DNA of 42,897 bases, from NCBI GenBank assembly GCA_029955215.1, contig GCA_029955215.1_4351.1, one strand, 5' to 3'. This document shows positions 9,961 through 42,897 of this stretch, piece by piece. The translations under genes and the position numbers were made by a program. How positions within the stretch are numbered: position 1 is the stretch's first letter; the number at the start of each line of letters is the position of its first letter. The stretch is from a phage. Below the pieces are notes generated by a model that saw only the letters and a program-made list of their open reading frames with translations, was not told where the DNA came from and searched no databases.

Positions 9961-11012
9961 GCAAGCTATCGCAGATGATTATCAGCCATCAAATATGGCT
10001 ACAGAGACTAGGAACGCAAACAGCGTCGCTGTCCGTCCCCTTCGTCAATAAGATGCGTGCGGAGGTGCGCGACGCGGTGCTTAAGTTCGGTGACGACGCG
10101 CGCACAGTGAAGAAGCTGAATAAATTGCTGACAAGCCTGGATGGCGTGCTGGATGACGTAACCGGCGATTGGAAGAGCACGATAGAGAAGAGCCTTCGCG
10201 AGATTGCCGACTACGAGAATAAGTGGTTTATCCATACGCTGGAGGCCAACACGAAGCCGAAAACGTTCATTACCGGACCTACGGCAGAAGAACTGTGGTC
10301 GCGTATCAAGTTCGCACCACTGGCGATGGGTAACTCACCTGTCAGCGTTATGGACCTGATGTCAGGCTGGGCGCAGACCGAGCGTAACCGCCTTGTGCGC
10401 GGCATACAGACCGGCTTTGTGCAGGGGCAGACAACCCGCCAAATTGTCTCTGCCGTTGTGGGTCCCGGTGGCCTGGCCGATATCTCTGAGCGCAACGTAA
10501 TGACGGTAGTCCGAACAGCAGTGAGCCACGTATCGAACACGGCGCGAGACTCTGTGTACGACAGCAACAGCGATATTGTGAGCAAATATCAGTGGGTATC
10601 TACGCTCGACAGCCGTACTTCGACTGTATGTAAGTCGCGCGACGGCCAGAAATATGACATAGGTAGAGGGCCGATGCCCCCCGCCCATCCGAACTGCCGC
10701 AGTACCACTATCCCGGTAATCGAAGATGACTTCCTGGACTTTCTCGACGAGGGGGCTAAGCGGGCGGCTAAGGGTGCGGACGGCGGTACTCAGGTAAGCG
10801 CAGACACCACCTATTACGAGTTCCTGAAGCAACAACCGGCATGGTTTCAGGACCAGGCGCTCGGCCCTGTTCGCGGTAAGATTTTCCGCGGCAGCGGTAT
10901 ATCGCCGGAAGAGTTTCGCGTAATATCTGTAGATGGTTTCGGGAATCCACTCACGCTTAAGCAGATGGCGGAACTCGATAAACGTGTTGCTGATTATCTG
11001 AAAGGGGAATAA
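9957..11012 (+). CDS. head morphogenesis protein (Mu gpF / SPP1 gp7-like)
   Basis: Position after portal; 351 aa; sequence character of the Mu F family. Confidence 0.65.
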   Translation: MSKLSQMIISHQIWLQRLGTQTASLSVPFVNKMRAEVRDAVLKFGDDARTVKKLNKLLTSLDGVLDDVTGDWKSTIEKSLREIADYENKWFIHTLEANTKPKTFITGPTAEELWSRIKFAPLAMGNSPVSVMDLMSGWAQTERNRLVRGIQTGFVQGQTTRQIVSAVVGPGGLADISERNVMTVVRTAVSHVSNTARDSVYDSNSDIVSKYQWVSTLDSRTSTVCKSRDGQKYDIGRGPMPPAHPNCRSTTIPVIEDDFLDFLDEGAKRAAKGADGGTQVSADTTYYEFLKQQPAWFQDQALGPVRGKIFRGSGISPEEFRVISVDGFGNPLTLKQMAELDKRVADYLKGE

Positions 11013-11473
11013 TGATGGGCTTTTTCAAAGTAACTGATGTACCGTCGCGCCGCGTAGTCCAGTACGCCCGCGTGTCAGGCTCTGGTGAGAACGTGGTGTT
11101 TATTGAAGATGAAAGTGTACTCGGTACACCAGTAGACGATATGCCGTTTGCAGATAAAACTGGTATTGCGCTACCGGCGGCGGGCATGCTTTACGAGATT
11201 CCGTATCTGGCTGATGCTGGTGACGTATATTTCTCTGTGCAACCGAAAGACACGGAACTTGCAGACGGCAGCGCAACTATCGCTGTAGAGGTTAAGGCCG
11301 GCAAAGCGCCATATGCTCTGACCTGGTACAAAGACGGTAAGGAAGTGGTCAACGCCCCGGAAGAGGCTTTGTCCCTGACGGTTAATGCGGCTGGTGAATA
11401 CTTCGTTAAAGTTACCGATGCCAATGGAGTGGAGGCGGTTAGCAAAGCGGCGAAGGTTACTAAGCCAGAATGA
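11012..11473 (+). CDS. Ig-like-domain protein (153 aa), possible capsid-associated
   Basis: C-terminal YALTWYKDGKEV...GEYFVKVTDANG resembles Ig-like fold repeats. Confidence 0.45.
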   Translation: MMGFFKVTDVPSRRVVQYARVSGSGENVVFIEDESVLGTPVDDMPFADKTGIALPAAGMLYEIPYLADAGDVYFSVQPKDTELADGSATIAVEVKAGKAPYALTWYKDGKEVVNAPEEALSLTVNAAGEYFVKVTDANGVEAVSKAAKVTKPE

Positions 11474-11476
11474 TAA

Positions 11477-11504
11477 AAGGCCCCATTATGGGGCCTTAGT
11501 TTTA
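11477..11504. terminator. bidirectional rho-independent terminator
   Basis: aaggcccc-attat-ggggcctt flanked by A-run upstream and agtttta downstream; separates convergent genes. Confidence 0.7.
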
Positions 11505-11726
11505 AACTTCCACGTCTATCACCAAATCATCAGGCATGGTTATGACTATTTTATCGTTTTCATAGAACGGGCTAAGAGGCTCATTTTCAGGCTGCAAACG
11601 TAAAGTTAGCTTTTTATCACCAAAATAATCTATGTAACGAACCCAGTACCACTCGTCGAATACCTGTACCTTTTCTCCGGGGCGTACATCTCTAGCCTTC
11701 TTTTGATTCGTAAATCTAATCGGCAT
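11502..11726 (-). CDS. hypothetical protein (74 aa), lone minus-strand gene in head module
   Basis: Own class I promoter (11753-11781), RBS caggagg, terminator at its 3' end. Confidence 0.55.
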   Translation of the reverse strand: MPIRFTNQKKARDVRPGEKVQVFDEWYWVRYIDYFGDKKLTLRLQPENEPLSPFYENDKIVITMPDDLVIDVEV

Positions 11727-11752
11727 AAATACCTCCTGTTTAAGTTAACTGA

Positions 11753-11781
11753 ATAGTACCCTATTATATTGGGGTGCGCAA
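11753..11781 (-). promoter_or_regulatory. sigma70-like promoter, class I (TTGCGC-N17-TACTAT) on minus strand
   Basis: Minus-strand reading ttgcgc-accccaatataataggg-tactat; near-identical to 21139-21167 and 163-191. Confidence 0.6.
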
Positions 11782-11847
11782 ACTATTTGTTTATGTATTC
11801 CAGTTATTCCACCAAATTGTAAATGTTGGAATAAACTATTCGAATAG

Positions 11848-11876
11848 TTGACTTTTCACTAAAAATATGCTAAGCT
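11848..11876 (+). promoter_or_regulatory. sigma70-like promoter (TTGACT-N17-TAAGCT), preceded by perfect 14-bp palindrome ACTATTCGAATAGT
   Basis: TTGACT 11848-11853, TAAGCT 11871-11876; palindrome 11835-11848; inverted repeat TTATTCCA/TGGAATAA 11804-11834. Confidence 0.45.
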
Positions 11877-12056
11877 CCACCTGAGCTTGTGAAGTATGAA
11901 CAAGCGACCGCGGCGCGGGCAGGTAACGGAGCGGGACGTAAGTCCTGAGTGTAGTTACGCTGACGCGTTCGGAAGGGCCATACTCTATTGCTTGTGTAAA
12001 AAGCAACTGGTTTACTGAGATTACGCCGTTTCTATGTTTAAATGATAAGGACTAGC

Positions 12057-12083
12057 GCCCCGCTTTATGGCGGGGCTTTACTT
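12057..12083 (+). terminator. terminator-like hairpin in leader just upstream of Rz
   Basis: gccccgc-tttatg-gcggggc followed by tttactt; 18 nt before the Rz start. Confidence 0.4.
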
Positions 12084-12100
12084 ATCGAGAAAGGGGAAAC

Positions 12101-12487
12101 ATGAATCTTAAAGCAACTGTCGTAGCGGGAGCATGTTTCATCATCCTGGCCTACGCACACGGCATATACCAGTACCGCAGCGGCTGGAACGAAGGCCGGG
12201 CGAACCTCGTTTCGCAGCAACAGCAGAAAGCACAGACTGAGCTAGCGAAGAAAACACAACGGCAGCAGCAGGATGAATCAAAGGCCGCAGCCGCTGACAA
12301 CGAAGGCAAGACGAAATCAGAGGTGATTACCCGTGAAGTCGTTAAGTACATTAAAACGCCTGGTCGCAGCGTGTGCACTTTCGACCCTGAGCGCGTGCAG
12401 CTCAAGTCCCGCGCCGTCGCAAACGCCAATTCCATCCCCGGATACGACGATGATGCAGCCGCCGTGCAAACTGGCACCGCCAAGTAG
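12101..12487 (+). CDS. i-spanin (Rz-like)
   Basis: N-terminal TM helix VVAGACFIILAYA, Q/K/A-rich coiled-coil region; overlaps the Rz1-like ORF. Confidence 0.6.
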   Translation: MNLKATVVAGACFIILAYAHGIYQYRSGWNEGRANLVSQQQQKAQTELAKKTQRQQQDESKAAAADNEGKTKSEVITREVVKYIKTPGRSVCTFDPERVQLKSRAVANANSIPGYDDDAAAVQTGTAK

Positions 12488-12596
12488 CGACGCTGACGAG
12501 GATTTGGCTGTCGACGTTCAGAACGCCGAATGCGCACGGCAATTGCGCCTGAAAGTGTTCATGTTGCAGGATTACGTGAGGAATATTCTGGAATAG
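12333..12596 (+). CDS. o-spanin (Rz1-like lipoprotein), overlapping Rz in another frame
   Basis: GTG 12333; lipobox L-S-A-C after hydrophobic signal; proline-rich mature region. Confidence 0.55.
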   Translation: MKSLSTLKRLVAACALSTLSACSSSPAPSQTPIPSPDTTMMQPPCKLAPPSSDADEDLAVDVQNAECARQLRLKVFMLQDYVRNILE

Positions 12597-12678
12597 TTGC
12601 CTTGCATGTTGGAATAATTTATTCTTGACATGTAAATCCGGGTGGCCCGGGTTCCAACGTCCAGGGGACATACTGACT

Positions 12679-13380
12679 ATGAATCGTTTTTTACGTTATC
12701 CGTTCCAGGAAGAAGCTGGGGCAGAAGATAAAGCTGGTGGCGGCGACGCGCCGAAAATGTTCACCGCTGAAGAAGTTCAGGCGATTATCGAGAAAGAAGT
12801 TGCCGGGCTTAAGGCTAATCAGGAAGCATTGCTGGCGGAGAAGAAAGAAGCCGCTCGTAAAGCAAAAGAGGCCGAAGAAGAACGGCAGCGCGCACACCAG
12901 GAGGCGTTAAAAGCCGCTGGTAAAATGGACGAGTTTGAAAAGACGATTCGTAGCCAGTATGACCCGGTGTTAGCTGAGAAAGATGGTCGCATCTCCAGAA
13001 TGGCAGAGCGCATCCTCGGCAGCGAACGTAAGGCGGTGTTAGGCTCTTTCGCTGGTGACTTTATTACCCCGGAAGCAGTGGACATCCTTGCGCCGTTCGT
13101 TAAGACTGAGTTTGAAGGCGATGACGTGGTTACTAAGTTTGTCGGCGCAGATGGCAACGTAATCACGACTGACCCGGAACAGTTCCGCAAATACCTGCGT
13201 GAACACAAAGCGTTTTCGCATTTGATTAAAGCAAATGCAGCTTCCGGCGGCGGGGCTTCCGGTGGCAAAGGCGGCGGGGCCGCACCAGCGTTTAAAGACA
13301 TGAGTGAAGCGGAGCGTTTAGCTCTGTATAAATCGAACCCTGCCGAATTTGAACGGCAACTTAAAGCCCTGAGGAAATAA
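12679..13380 (+). CDS. scaffolding protein (putative)
   Basis: Directly upstream of major capsid gene; Ala/Glu/Lys-rich coiled-coil character. Confidence 0.6.
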   Translation: MNRFLRYPFQEEAGAEDKAGGGDAPKMFTAEEVQAIIEKEVAGLKANQEALLAEKKEAARKAKEAEEERQRAHQEALKAAGKMDEFEKTIRSQYDPVLAEKDGRISRMAERILGSERKAVLGSFAGDFITPEAVDILAPFVKTEFEGDDVVTKFVGADGNVITTDPEQFRKYLREHKAFSHLIKANAASGGGASGGKGGGAAPAFKDMSEAERLALYKSNPAEFERQLKALRK

Positions 13381-14432: not shown

Positions 14433-14449
14433 GGTTAAGATATAATCGG

Positions 14450-14475
14450 GAGGGACTTCGGTCCCTCTTTTCATT
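14450..14475 (+). terminator. rho-independent terminator after capsid gene
   Basis: gagggac-ttcg-gtccctc followed by ttttcattt. Confidence 0.65.
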
Positions 14476-18843: not shown

Positions 18844-18868
18844 AAGGCCCCGAAAGGGGCCTTTTTCT
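18844..18868. terminator. bidirectional rho-independent terminator
   Basis: aaggcccc-gaaa-ggggcctt followed by tttctt; convergent gene ends on both sides. Confidence 0.8.
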
Positions 18869-21108: not shown

Positions 21109-21138
21109 TTTAAACCCCTTCATTGTTGGTGTAAGTGA

Positions 21139-21167
21139 ATAGTACCCTATTATATTGGGGTGTGCAA
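21139..21167 (-). promoter_or_regulatory. sigma70-like promoter, class I (TTGCAC-N17-TACTAT) driving minus-strand cassette
   Basis: Minus-strand reading ttgcac-accccaatataataggg-tactat. Confidence 0.6.
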
Positions 21168-42561: not shown

Positions 42562-42590
42562 AGTATACATTGCGAATAATGGGAAATCAA
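42562..42590 (-). promoter_or_regulatory. sigma70-like promoter (TTGATT-N17-TATACT) for minus-strand early operon
   Basis: Minus-strand reading ttgatt-tcccattattcgcaatg-tatact. Confidence 0.55.
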
Positions 42591-42798
42591 ACATAATCGC
42601 ACCTATTGACATTATGAAAATCTTCGTTTAAGGTGCTTCTATATCTTAGTTACTTTGATTCCTGTTCACCTTGTAAGAATGTTTAACCCGTGCGTTAAGC
42701 AAAGGGTTAAGCACAGGATTACTGAACACTCGAATTATCGTAACTTTCCTTTTCTTAGTATCTCAGTTGCCCTGGGCAAGCTCTATTCTCATCGGCAT

Positions 42799-42897
42799 CA
42801 TATCTCTTAAGTAACTGATTTTCTTAATGTGCCGTAGATTCGCAACCGTAAAAATGTAACGATTATTGGGCAGGCTTAGGGCCTGCCCTTTAGTTAC
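42799..42897. repeat. Right copy of exact 99-bp direct repeat
   Basis: Identical to 1-99; the window ends exactly at the end of the repeat. Confidence 0.9.

Follow-up and report, generated by a model that had tools for sequence, protein, structure and literature searches.

In phage lambda, the late leader runs from the PR' promoter through a 194-nt 6S transcript to the tR' terminator, after which the lysis and morphogenesis genes follow, and it needs the Q protein together with a DNA site in the promoter; to our knowledge, this leader is not known as a covariation-supported structured RNA. The putL and putR antitermination RNAs of the lambdoid phage HK022 were reportedly described by King et al. 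in 1996 and in later structural work, and the HK022 genome carries putL, putR and a lambdoid late leader. The put RNA acts in cis on the zinc-binding domain of the RNA polymerase beta' subunit and suppresses downstream terminators. In phage T7, RNase III sites such as R1.1 lie between genes of one long transcript. Here, we analysed a stretch of 42,897 nt (GenBank assembly GCA_029955215.1, contig GCA_029955215.1_4351.1; the window hereafter), which represents a whole phage genome (42.9 kb) of Kagunavirus-like type (Guernseyvirinae), and focused on the 374-bp non-coding gap at 11727-12100, between a minus-strand open reading frame (ORF) at 11502-11726 and the ATG (12101) of Rz, the i-spanin gene. 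The first-pass annotation had delimited this gap, and the flanking ORFs bear out its coordinates.

We found that the right-hand 250 bp of the gap can be read as a promoter-to-hairpin cassette, and we give a rough probability of 0.5 to the reading that it makes a discrete stable RNA which also serves as the leader of Rz/Rz1 through a leaky or processed 3' hairpin. Host RNA polymerase would start at an extended -10 promoter at 11848-11876, with its timing set by a TATTCC/GGAATA array, and would produce an RNA of ~205 nt (about 11883-12088, from a predicted start site) that carries a protective 5' hairpin, a 65-nt three-tier hairpin, a near-invariant unpaired 3' module and a G+C-rich end hairpin. 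Most transcripts would end or be cut at the 3' hairpin, giving a free stable RNA as the putative functional product, which may act beyond Rz; the remaining polymerases would read on into Rz/Rz1, and the RNA would then double as the leader of the spanin mRNA. Several of the features are not beyond chance when taken singly, and the evidence that they are real comes from their conservation and covariation in relatives. The features of the cassette are as follows.

11796-11848, unstranded: operator-like array of five TATTC(C)/GGAATA half-sites, adjoining the -35 element
11796-11801, 11805-11810 and 11828-11833, plus the palindrome ACTATTCGAATAGT at 11835-11848: half-sites of the array
11848-11876, plus strand: rightward promoter, TTGACT 11848-11853, 17-nt spacer, TAAGCT 11871-11876
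about 11883-12088, plus strand: RNA of ~205 nt, from the inferred start to the end hairpin
11885-11905, plus strand: P1, 5'-terminal hairpin GCUUGU/ACAAGC with a 9-nt loop
11908-11972, plus strand: core three-tier hairpin, 65 nt
11908-10 and 11912-17 with 11964-72, plus strand: P2, with bulged C11911
11920-27 with 11954-62, plus strand: P3
11928-32 (GGAGC) opposite 11947-53 (GAGUGUA), plus strand: purine-rich, asymmetric internal loop of the core
11933-37 with 11942-46, plus strand: P4, with a GUAA loop
11971-11993, plus strand: single-stranded conserved block GGAAGGGCC-N6-CUAUUG
11988-12006, plus strand: P5, hairpin UUGCUU/AAGCAA, Kaguna type only
12017-12055, plus strand: 3' module GAGAUUACGCCGUUUCUAUGUUUAAAUGAUAAGGACUAG, mostly unpaired by prediction and almost invariant
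12044-12086, plus strand: extended 3' hairpin, lower stem GAUAAG 12044-49 with CUUAUC 12081-86
12057-64 with 12069-76, plus strand: upper G+C stem, with loop UUAU and a U-rich tail
12093-12487, plus strand: Rz (i-spanin), Shine-Dalgarno GGGG 12093-96, ATG 12101

The arrangement resembles the lambda late leader in its strong promoter, in the ~200-nt non-coding RNA that runs to a hairpin upstream of the lysis genes, and in the head genes that come after, and in both cases downstream expression must pass the hairpin. It differs from lambda in that no Q homolog is annotated in relatives of the window and in that the RNA fold is here the conserved object. A Q-family antiterminator is annotated neither in Bas70 (PHROG-style) nor in Schulenburg (CPT), the proteins of the window not all having been scanned; the regulators annotated in these two phages are Cro-like, HTH and NinH-like proteins only.

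The RNA is more conserved than the genes around it. In 36 IMG/VR loci of the Kaguna type, the RNA (11880-12088) was on average 97.5% identical to the window, compared with 88.4% for the Hoc-like decoration gene, 92.2% for Rz and 94.3% for the scaffold gene, and in four loci whose Rz showed 73-80% identity the RNA was still 96-98% identical. Similarity of the relatives to the window begins at ~11796, and the class I promoter part to the left is not co-conserved with the RNA. Among GenBank phages, the Kaguna type was present in 182 records (90-99% identity) and a diverged Jersey type in 269; the latter was missed by blastn with the window sequence and is homologous in blocks, namely ACCGCGGnGCGG, GnAGCGGG, UUCGGAAGGGCC, UAUUGCUU, AGAUU(A)CGCCGU, AUGUUUA and the end hairpin. 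A covariance model, R1, was built on the Kaguna-type alignment with a hand-specified structure. It detected exactly one copy in the window, and it scored 240-277 bits on Kaguna-type sequences, 195 on the intermediate locus L028 and 55-62 bits (E ~1e-14) on Jersey-type sequences. As a negative control, we used 80 of the 120 IMG/VR loci returned by the degenerate pattern ACCGCG..TYCGGAAGG; the sole strong R1 match there was L091, the second piece of the Kagunavirus contig L009, and the best results in unrelated control loci were two 44-nt matches at E=0.9.

Run on the raw alignment, MAFFT/RNAalifold placed the Jerseyvirus stems wrongly and gave only parts of the fold, and a model-based alignment was used in its place. 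In this alignment, 98.8% of the cells were paired versus 33-40% with slid partners, 17 of the 41 pairs had changed on both sides, and none of 500 shuffles reached any observed pairing measure. When the copies from the early region (see below) were included, the paired fraction was 97.7% versus 34-42% for slid partners, with double changes at 20 of the 41 pairs. Such changes affect four of the six pairs of P1, seven of the eight of P3 and all five of P4, and one pair of P2 occurs in three types (CG/UA/AU). P1 is substituted at the same place by ACGCU UUC AGCGU in Jerseyvirus and by GCUUGUG..CGCAAGC in L028/L182, and P4 was found as GGGAC/GUCCU, GGUGC/GCACU, CGGAC/GUCCG, GGGCGU/ACGCCC, GUGCC/GGCAC and CACGU/ACGUG. 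Single-sequence folds of 12 variant cores all gave the same architecture of 62-68 nt (dG -28 to -37 kcal/mol), with P2 and its bulged C, P3, the asymmetric purine-rich internal loop, and P4 with a 4-5-nt loop. Hairpin conservation in relatives, one of the points on which the first-pass annotation had staked its proposal, holds in Kagunavirus, Jerseyvirus and the early-region paralogs, where the hairpins are kept by compensatory changes.

The unpaired segments are conserved as well. Kaguna-type, Jersey-type and early copies all carry the block GGAAGGGCC-N6-CUAUUG with little or no variation, and CGGAAGGG(C/U)C is also found in the phages SP-031 and phiEap-2. Even L028, with a whole RNA (11880-12088) just 81% identical to that of the window, shows no change in the 3' module GAGAUUACGCCGUUUCUAUGUUUAAAUGAUAAGGACUAG, and the sub-motifs AGAUU(A)CGCCGU and AUGUUUA are common to the window and Jerseyvirus. 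P5 is the weakest element, unsupported outside the Kaguna type: it showed no covariation, and neither Jerseyvirus nor L028 has it. We rejected a long-range pairing between GAGUGU and AUACUC (11981-86), as the latter segment varies without compensation. Within 11971-12000, a UUG mini-ORF (UUG CUU GUG UAA), whose length in relatives ranges from 1 to 10 codons, comes 10 nt after a conserved GGAAGGG that resembles a Shine-Dalgarno sequence; the pair could hint at a start-stop or upstream-ORF type of ribosome loading site.

Conserved G-U pairs occur in P2, P4 and P5 and would be C-A on the opposite strand, which indicates that the plus-strand RNA, rather than the DNA or an antisense transcript, is the folding species. 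This bears on the proposal that the locus is a DNA-level element, such as a replication origin, a packaging site or a protein-binding array, with its hairpins acting as cruciforms or single-stranded DNA structures. The repeated half-sites and palindromes at 11796-11848 and a CCGCGG-type palindrome inside the conserved ACCGCGG block would suit such an element; the frequent G-U pairs, weak in DNA, do not. In addition, the element is headed by a conserved promoter directed into it and bounded by a hairpin at its end, and the repeats are outside the transcribed part, on its upstream side. We therefore consider this proposal highly improbable.

An ORF of 36-40 aa (11896-12018) lies inside the RNA and is annotated as a hypothetical protein in several relatives, including Bas70 and Schulenburg. 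That the locus is simply a small protein gene is an idea to which we give next to no credence. The ORF is indeed intact in most Kaguna-type sequences, but it is broken or has lost its start in 7 of the 30 distinct ones (frameshifted or truncated in L003, L013, L022, L027 and L015, ATG lost in L012 and L028), and other genera lack the reading frame while keeping the RNA structure. Moreover, the ORF has no PHROG or Pfam family and no convincing Shine-Dalgarno, and the substitutions are compensatory in the stems rather than synonymous.

The plus-strand promoter noted by the first-pass annotation at 11848-11876 is present and is of the extended -10 type (TGcTAAGCT, with TG at 11868-11869); a simple consensus scan missed it because its -10 hexamer matches the consensus at only three of six positions. 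The -35 element and TG-N-TA(A/C)GCT are retained in all 46 distinct aligned relatives, and the predicted transcription start lies at ~11883. Upstream of it, the inverted repeat TTATTCCA(CCA) (11804-11814) versus TGTTGGAATAA (11824-11834) and the palindrome ACTATTCGAATAGT (11835-11848) were found as described. With at most one mismatch, TGTTGGAATAA matched three times against 0.72 expected, and two of 100 shuffles also reached three, so that these matches are not individually beyond chance. The TATTCC/GGAATA array is retained in Jerseyvirus, in Cornellvirus SP-031 and in phiEap-2, and was not found in the early paralog or in leaders of the TS6/AH01 type. This array is probably an operator that sets the timing of the rightward promoter.

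The sole other GGAATA cluster in the window genome lies at 12580-12624. There, the recurrence of the motif ATGTTGGAATAA upstream of the scaffold gene was confirmed at 12606-12617, within a longer repeat of 19 nt (11823-11841 and 12606-12624, 89%). The surroundings of this second cluster are listed here.

12580-12655, plus strand: second GGAATA cluster, TGGAAUAAuuUAUUC-TTGACA and hairpin CCGGGTGGCCCGG, upstream of the scaffold gene

The order is GGAATA..TGGAATAAtttATTC-TTGACA (TGGAAUAAuuUAUUC-TTGACA) followed by the hairpin, and the -10 is ambiguous, either TTGCCT-17-TATTCT or TTGACA without a recognisable -10. The element is conserved in all Guernseyvirinae clades examined, including AH01 and TS6, and it is present even in clades whose Rz leader is without GGAATA sites. 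It is probably a co-regulated promoter with its 5' untranslated region (5'UTR).

At the 3' end, a terminator-like scan matched 12057-12076 (eight pairs, seven of them G-C, a 4-nt loop and the tail TTTACTTATC), a G+C-rich stem with a short loop as in intrinsic terminators, which ends 18-25 nt before the Rz ATG; six terminator-like matches were present in 2 kb, against 2.5 expected, so that a single such match is not beyond chance. The terminator-like stem proposed by the first-pass annotation is therefore present and conserved as a hairpin, but it is only the top of a longer stem (12044-12086, fold energy -23 kcal/mol), and its U-rich tail, which other genera lack, is predicted to pair with an A-rich strand on the upstream side. 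In the window, the U tract reads UUUACUUAU (6 U in 9) and is predicted to pair with GAUAAG at 12044-49; in Jerseyvirus it reads UUAGCGUAU, and TS6, VSiP, SP-031, AH01 and phiEap-2 have none. An Hfq-type small RNA tail, with a run of at least about six U, was not found at this hairpin, the tail being only UUUAC, though an A/U-rich segment (12030-12049) is present. The end stem occurs as CCCCGC/GCGGGG, CCCUGC/GCAGGG, CCCGGC/GCCGGG and CCCGAC/GUCGGG, the last three being compensatory changes in the upper stem, and the lower stem is swapped for other complementary pairs in each genus. Intrinsic termination is plausible in the window.

The conserved property of the 3' end is a stem beside the ribosome-binding site. 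In every genus, the extended stem ends 5-10 nt before the Shine-Dalgarno of Rz; in the window, the end of the RNA lies about 5-7 nt from the ribosome-binding site of Rz, and this spacing is kept in all genera. No promoter was seen between the 3' stem and the Shine-Dalgarno of Rz, nor is there room for one, and Rz/Rz1 must therefore be transcribed through the RNA element. Rz itself matches phrog_2536 (E=1e-56). The lengths of the duplexes, ~22 bp with loops in the core and ~17 bp in the 3' stem, fit RNase III substrates. In this respect the locus resembles T7 R1.1, with irregular long hairpins, an asymmetric internal loop and a position near ribosome-binding sites, and by analogy a cut there would yield a mature mRNA on the downstream side and set free a stable RNA on the upstream side. 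It differs from the T7 sites in that the RNA cassette has its own promoter, and the conservation of the internal loop (GAGUGUAG) corresponds to no known RNase III determinant.

Two observations concern the genes that follow. The o-spanin gene Rz1 (12333-12596) overlaps Rz, and GTG 12333 is its most likely start, as it gives a signal peptide and a lipobox (…LSTLSAC); the alignment with phrog_1267 spans residues 9-86 of the longer form, and several relatives annotate a short Rz1 from the equivalent of 12450, without the lipoprotein signal. Further along the rightward late region, strong hairpin terminators lie at 14448-14469, after the major capsid gene, and at 18844-18863, the latter being bidirectional and placed after the tail tube gene, where it borders a minus-strand gene block.

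A structured leader of 200-290 nt is found at the same place in other genera, in Cornellvirus SP-031, phiEap-2, TS6, VSiP, St162, SE1 and Pantoea phage AH01. Among themselves, the leaders of this group show a clear relationship (z 20-57), while their similarity to the window RNA was significant only for phiEap-2 (z 4.5), and R1 does not detect the leaders of TS6, AH01 and SP-031. Patches common to them and the window include GACCGCG..CGGAAGGGYC, hairpins with a GNRA cap, and two loop motifs, ACGGAG and GUAG, whose strands are swapped in phiEap-2. We treat these leaders as positional analogues with partial homology. In the more distant Klebsiella phage K21lambda1 (44% capsid identity), both the gap and Rz are lacking at this position.

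We further identified a second copy of the RNA in some relatives. R1 found a second site in phage Schulenburg (L181, 37907-38084, 60 bits) and also in fFiEco03, GZMU_E2010 (109 bits), phiEc4, G AB-2017 and Golestan; blastn gave 224 places in 181 records, from which about 43 genomes carry two copies. Its place is the divergent control region of the early genes, and this second copy has a near-identical promoter, identical P1 and P2 5' arm, variant P3/P4 and its own end hairpin, without the TATTCC operator. On its 3' side follow ~70 nt, a class I promoter and then the first early gene, and it adjoins no lysis gene. Because its own hairpin, ~70 nt and another promoter precede the early gene, the early copy is not a 5'UTR abutting a gene, which supports the existence of a free RNA. 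In locus L015, the 5' domain and core of the late copy (2276-2485) are those of the early copy of GZMU_E2010 (L183, 380-573) and unlike the usual late copy; the identity of these two cores shows that modules move between the early and late loci, and the sequences point to recombination or gene conversion between the two.

The early paralogs (L181 37880-38110; L182-L186 about 380-600) come in at least two forms. One carries tandem CACT repeats before the end hairpin, three in Schulenburg, four in G AB-2017 and seven in Golestan; this repeat, like UCACUCC of the other form, is complementary to the GGAGUGA Shine-Dalgarno region of class I early leaders. The window has no second R1-type copy, and Jerseyvirus AG11 likewise has a single one. 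The early slot of the window (42563-42897 joined to 1-225) holds instead a ~460-nt non-coding promoter-to-terminator cassette, here called type C, with the following features.

42606-42634: type C promoter TTGACA-17-TAAGGT, followed by ~260 nt without a notable ORF
70-90: strong type C hairpin terminator, tail TTTAGTTAC
163-191: class I promoter after the type C terminator, with the first early gene at ATG 226

The type C cassette (~42606 to 99) fills the slot of the Rz-leader paralog of ~43 other Kagunaviruses. It is conserved in Jerseyvirus AG11 (L187 35540-35830, alignment z=43), where its terminator shows the compensatory change GGC/GCC to GGU/ACC. The resemblance between the late 3' module and the 3' part of the type C cassette is marginal (R1 14.5 bits; z 3.5 in the window and below 2 in three other comparisons), and we do not claim homology.

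The two copies recall the put RNAs of HK022. Like put, this is a folded RNA found soon after promoters, with two copies in some relatives, downstream terminator-like hairpins and no dedicated antiterminator protein annotated in relatives of the window. We considered a put-like, RNA-only processive antitermination, in which the nascent RNA would carry its own polymerase through the 3' hairpin and later rightward terminators. In its favour, the copies of two-copy genomes sit just 3' of the strong promoters heading both rightward units, the late operon contains terminator-like hairpins (14448-14469 and 18844-18863), and the independent annotations of two relatives list no N- or Q-like antiterminator. 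However, R1 found nothing in the HK022 genome at E<=10, HK022 offered no sequence or structure match to the window RNA, and the architecture is one long hairpin with an unpaired module rather than the two adjacent stems of put. The separate promoter after the early copy bypasses it, so that most early transcripts would be without the RNA, and the window and Jerseyvirus AG11 have a single R1-type copy. We regard put-like action as quite unlikely.

The reading of a free stable RNA that doubles as spanin leader fits the selected fold, the near-invariant unpaired segments, the dedicated promoter, the operator restricted to the late copy, the long 3' stem, the read-through and the free-standing early paralog. 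Several points weigh against it. The fold z-score of the whole RNA is only -1.5 and not exceptional. The covariation alignments were fitted to the model and favour the structure, which is why the 12 variant cores were folded singly. The short U tract UUUACUUAU is predicted to be paired and is absent in four other genera; intrinsic termination is therefore not a conserved property, and in Schulenburg the hairpin was not marked as a terminator in the CPT annotation. The sole Kagunavirus RNA-seq paper found (K1B4) is at gene-level resolution. The invariant fusion to Rz in every genus equally fits a role purely in cis, and the high identity could come in part from recent recombination that spread one allele.

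Another view is that there is no function at the RNA level, only a promoter, a spacer and a hairpin whose identity reflects recent horizontal spread or use as a recombination linker. The genomes are mosaic, one and the same leader occurring with various alleles of Rz, scaffold and accessory genes, segments are exchanged between early and late copies, and the thermodynamic z-score of the whole RNA is weak, all as this view would have it. It fails to account for P1-P4 and the 3' stem being kept by compensatory changes across lineages that are more than 40% different, for the selective conservation of the loop and junction motifs GAGUGUAG and GGAAGGGCC, and for the drop in pairing from 98% to below 42% with slid partners, and it is very unlikely.

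A role purely in cis is a tentative alternative that deserves some weight. Here the element would be a leader that tunes late Rz/Rz1 expression, perhaps also that of the scaffold and capsid genes, with no function as a free RNA, and it could work through protein or ligand attenuation at the 3' hairpin, through masking and unmasking of the Shine-Dalgarno, or through RNase III processing of the long stems. The spacing to the ribosome-binding site of Rz is fixed in every Guernseyvirinae genus despite different 5' modules, no promoter intervenes before Rz, the C-rich hairpin arm could pair with its G-rich partner or with the GGGG Shine-Dalgarno, the core (~22 bp) and 3' stem (~17 bp) have the size of RNase III substrates, and the operator array suggests timed expression. 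Against this stand the early paralog, which adjoins no gene start and is followed by another promoter, and the almost invariant unpaired 3' module, which a mere expression platform does not need. The leader also does not co-vary with Rz or scaffold alleles. Nor is there a match to a riboswitch family, and spanins are not metabolic genes that call for ligand sensing. Both the leader and the separate RNA fit what the first-pass annotation had proposed, a structured leader or a small RNA, for which the conserved hairpins, the promoter, the 3' hairpin and the identity above that of the flanking genes all speak. Control of lysis-gene expression in particular would be only one possible role, a paralog being known that adjoins no lysis gene.

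Going beyond the free RNA as such, the element might be the founding member of a modular phage RNA family, with early and late paralogs that swap 5' domains and act on a host machine without a dedicated phage protein. This is a speculative and rather unlikely extension; possible routes would be RNA-only antitermination unrelated to put, or sequestration of a host RNA-binding or defence factor by the invariant GAGUGUAG loop and the 3' module.

We also compared the element with known kinds of RNA. Rfam 15 gave no match in the whole window at gathering thresholds; under permissive settings over 11450-12700, the best overlapping match was wcaG (18.4 bits versus 42 required, E=1.2), and the leaders of nine relatives gave nothing at E<=0.5. 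ARAGORN found no tRNA or tmRNA in the window or in 11 relatives, and the annotated tRNA-Ser of some Jerseyviruses was set aside, as it lies on the opposite strand over the end of the Hoc-like gene, outside the RNA. Host mimicry and a prophage origin were dropped, since 5,426 complete E. coli genomes showed no similarity. As for a riboswitch aptamer, a covarying hairpin is present, but it is single and irregular, without an evident multi-helix ligand pocket or a match to a known class; the downstream genes encode spanins and head proteins, the early paralog has no adjacent gene start, and we could establish no alternative pairing with the 3' hairpin that is conserved. In phages, 10,006 unnamed csRNAs have been catalogued (PMC10690425), and the window RNA is like these in being conserved, covarying, intergenic and from Caudoviricetes, some csRNAs lying no more than 25 nt upstream of genes; it differs from the Rfam 15 families in that none matches any leader type. 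We found no description of the RNA in the searchable literature or in Rfam 15, though it may already be listed among the csRNAs of PMC10690425. It is thus a conserved structured phage leader or small RNA for which we found no prior description, and this Rz-leader RNA looks like a new phage RNA.

Few phages of E. coli and Salmonella are isolated as often as the Guernseyvirinae (Kagunavirus, Jerseyvirus, Cornellvirus), which are widely proposed for therapy and food safety. The element is present in more than 450 deposited genomes, where it is left blank or annotated as a 36-aa hypothetical protein; at the least, the annotation should be corrected to an RNA feature in place of a CDS. Because it is more conserved than the decoration, spanin and scaffold genes, duplicated, and exchanged between loci, the RNA very likely matters for the infection cycle. 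The analysis also establishes how promoters and operators are arranged in the spanin and head operons. As the RNA is small, with clear mutational targets, in easily cultured phages such as Bas70 of the BASEL collection, the choice among leader, free RNA and antiterminator is directly testable.

The genome has a terminal repeat of 98 bases (1-98 = 42800-42897), and over 11400-12700 it is 98% identical to Escherichia phage vB_EcoS-Ro145c2YLVW (Guernseyvirinae, Kagunavirus). Around the gap, the gene order is portal, head-morphogenesis, Hoc-like decoration, a 74-aa ORF on the minus strand, the gap, Rz/Rz1, scaffold and major capsid. The left-hand part of this neighbourhood contains the following.

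11012-11473: Hoc-like decoration gene
11477-11497: hairpin between the Hoc-like gene and the 74-aa ORF
11502-11726, minus strand: accessory ORF of 74 aa, from the ORF list
11727-12100: non-coding gap of 374 bp, between the minus-strand ORF 11502-11726 and the Rz ATG at 12101
11727-11795, minus strand: 5'UTR and class I sigma70-type promoter of the accessory ORF
11737-11732, minus strand: Shine-Dalgarno AGGAGG of the accessory ORF
11750-11781, minus strand: class I promoter motif of 32 nt, -35 TTGCGC 11781-11776, 17 nt, -10 TACTAT 11758-11753

The gap is divergent, as had been stated, but its left half serves a variable accessory gene and is no part of the RNA. The minus-strand class I promoter was located within 11750-11781, and further copies of the 32-nt motif lie at 21136-21167 (97%) and, inverted, at 163-194 (91%). 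In the Kagunavirus fBC-Eco01, a repeat-finding program yielded the reported repeat tgAATAGTa-ccTATTat-T (PMC9825357), which the 32-nt motif of the window matches. The accessory ORF matches phrog_8705 (E=2e-24), has no Pfam match, and among the 50 relatives compared is present in L001 only. In the relatives its slot holds a sliding clamp, methylase, RusA or PAPS reductase, and it is empty in Jerseyvirus. The slot between the Hoc-like gene and the RNA cassette (11477-11726 in the window) is thus an accessory-gene hot spot. Where the strand was checked (sliding clamp, PAPS reductase and several small unknown ORFs), its occupants lie on the minus strand, the DNA methylase and RusA being given as listed, without a look at their strand, and in the window a class I promoter copy drives the accessory gene.

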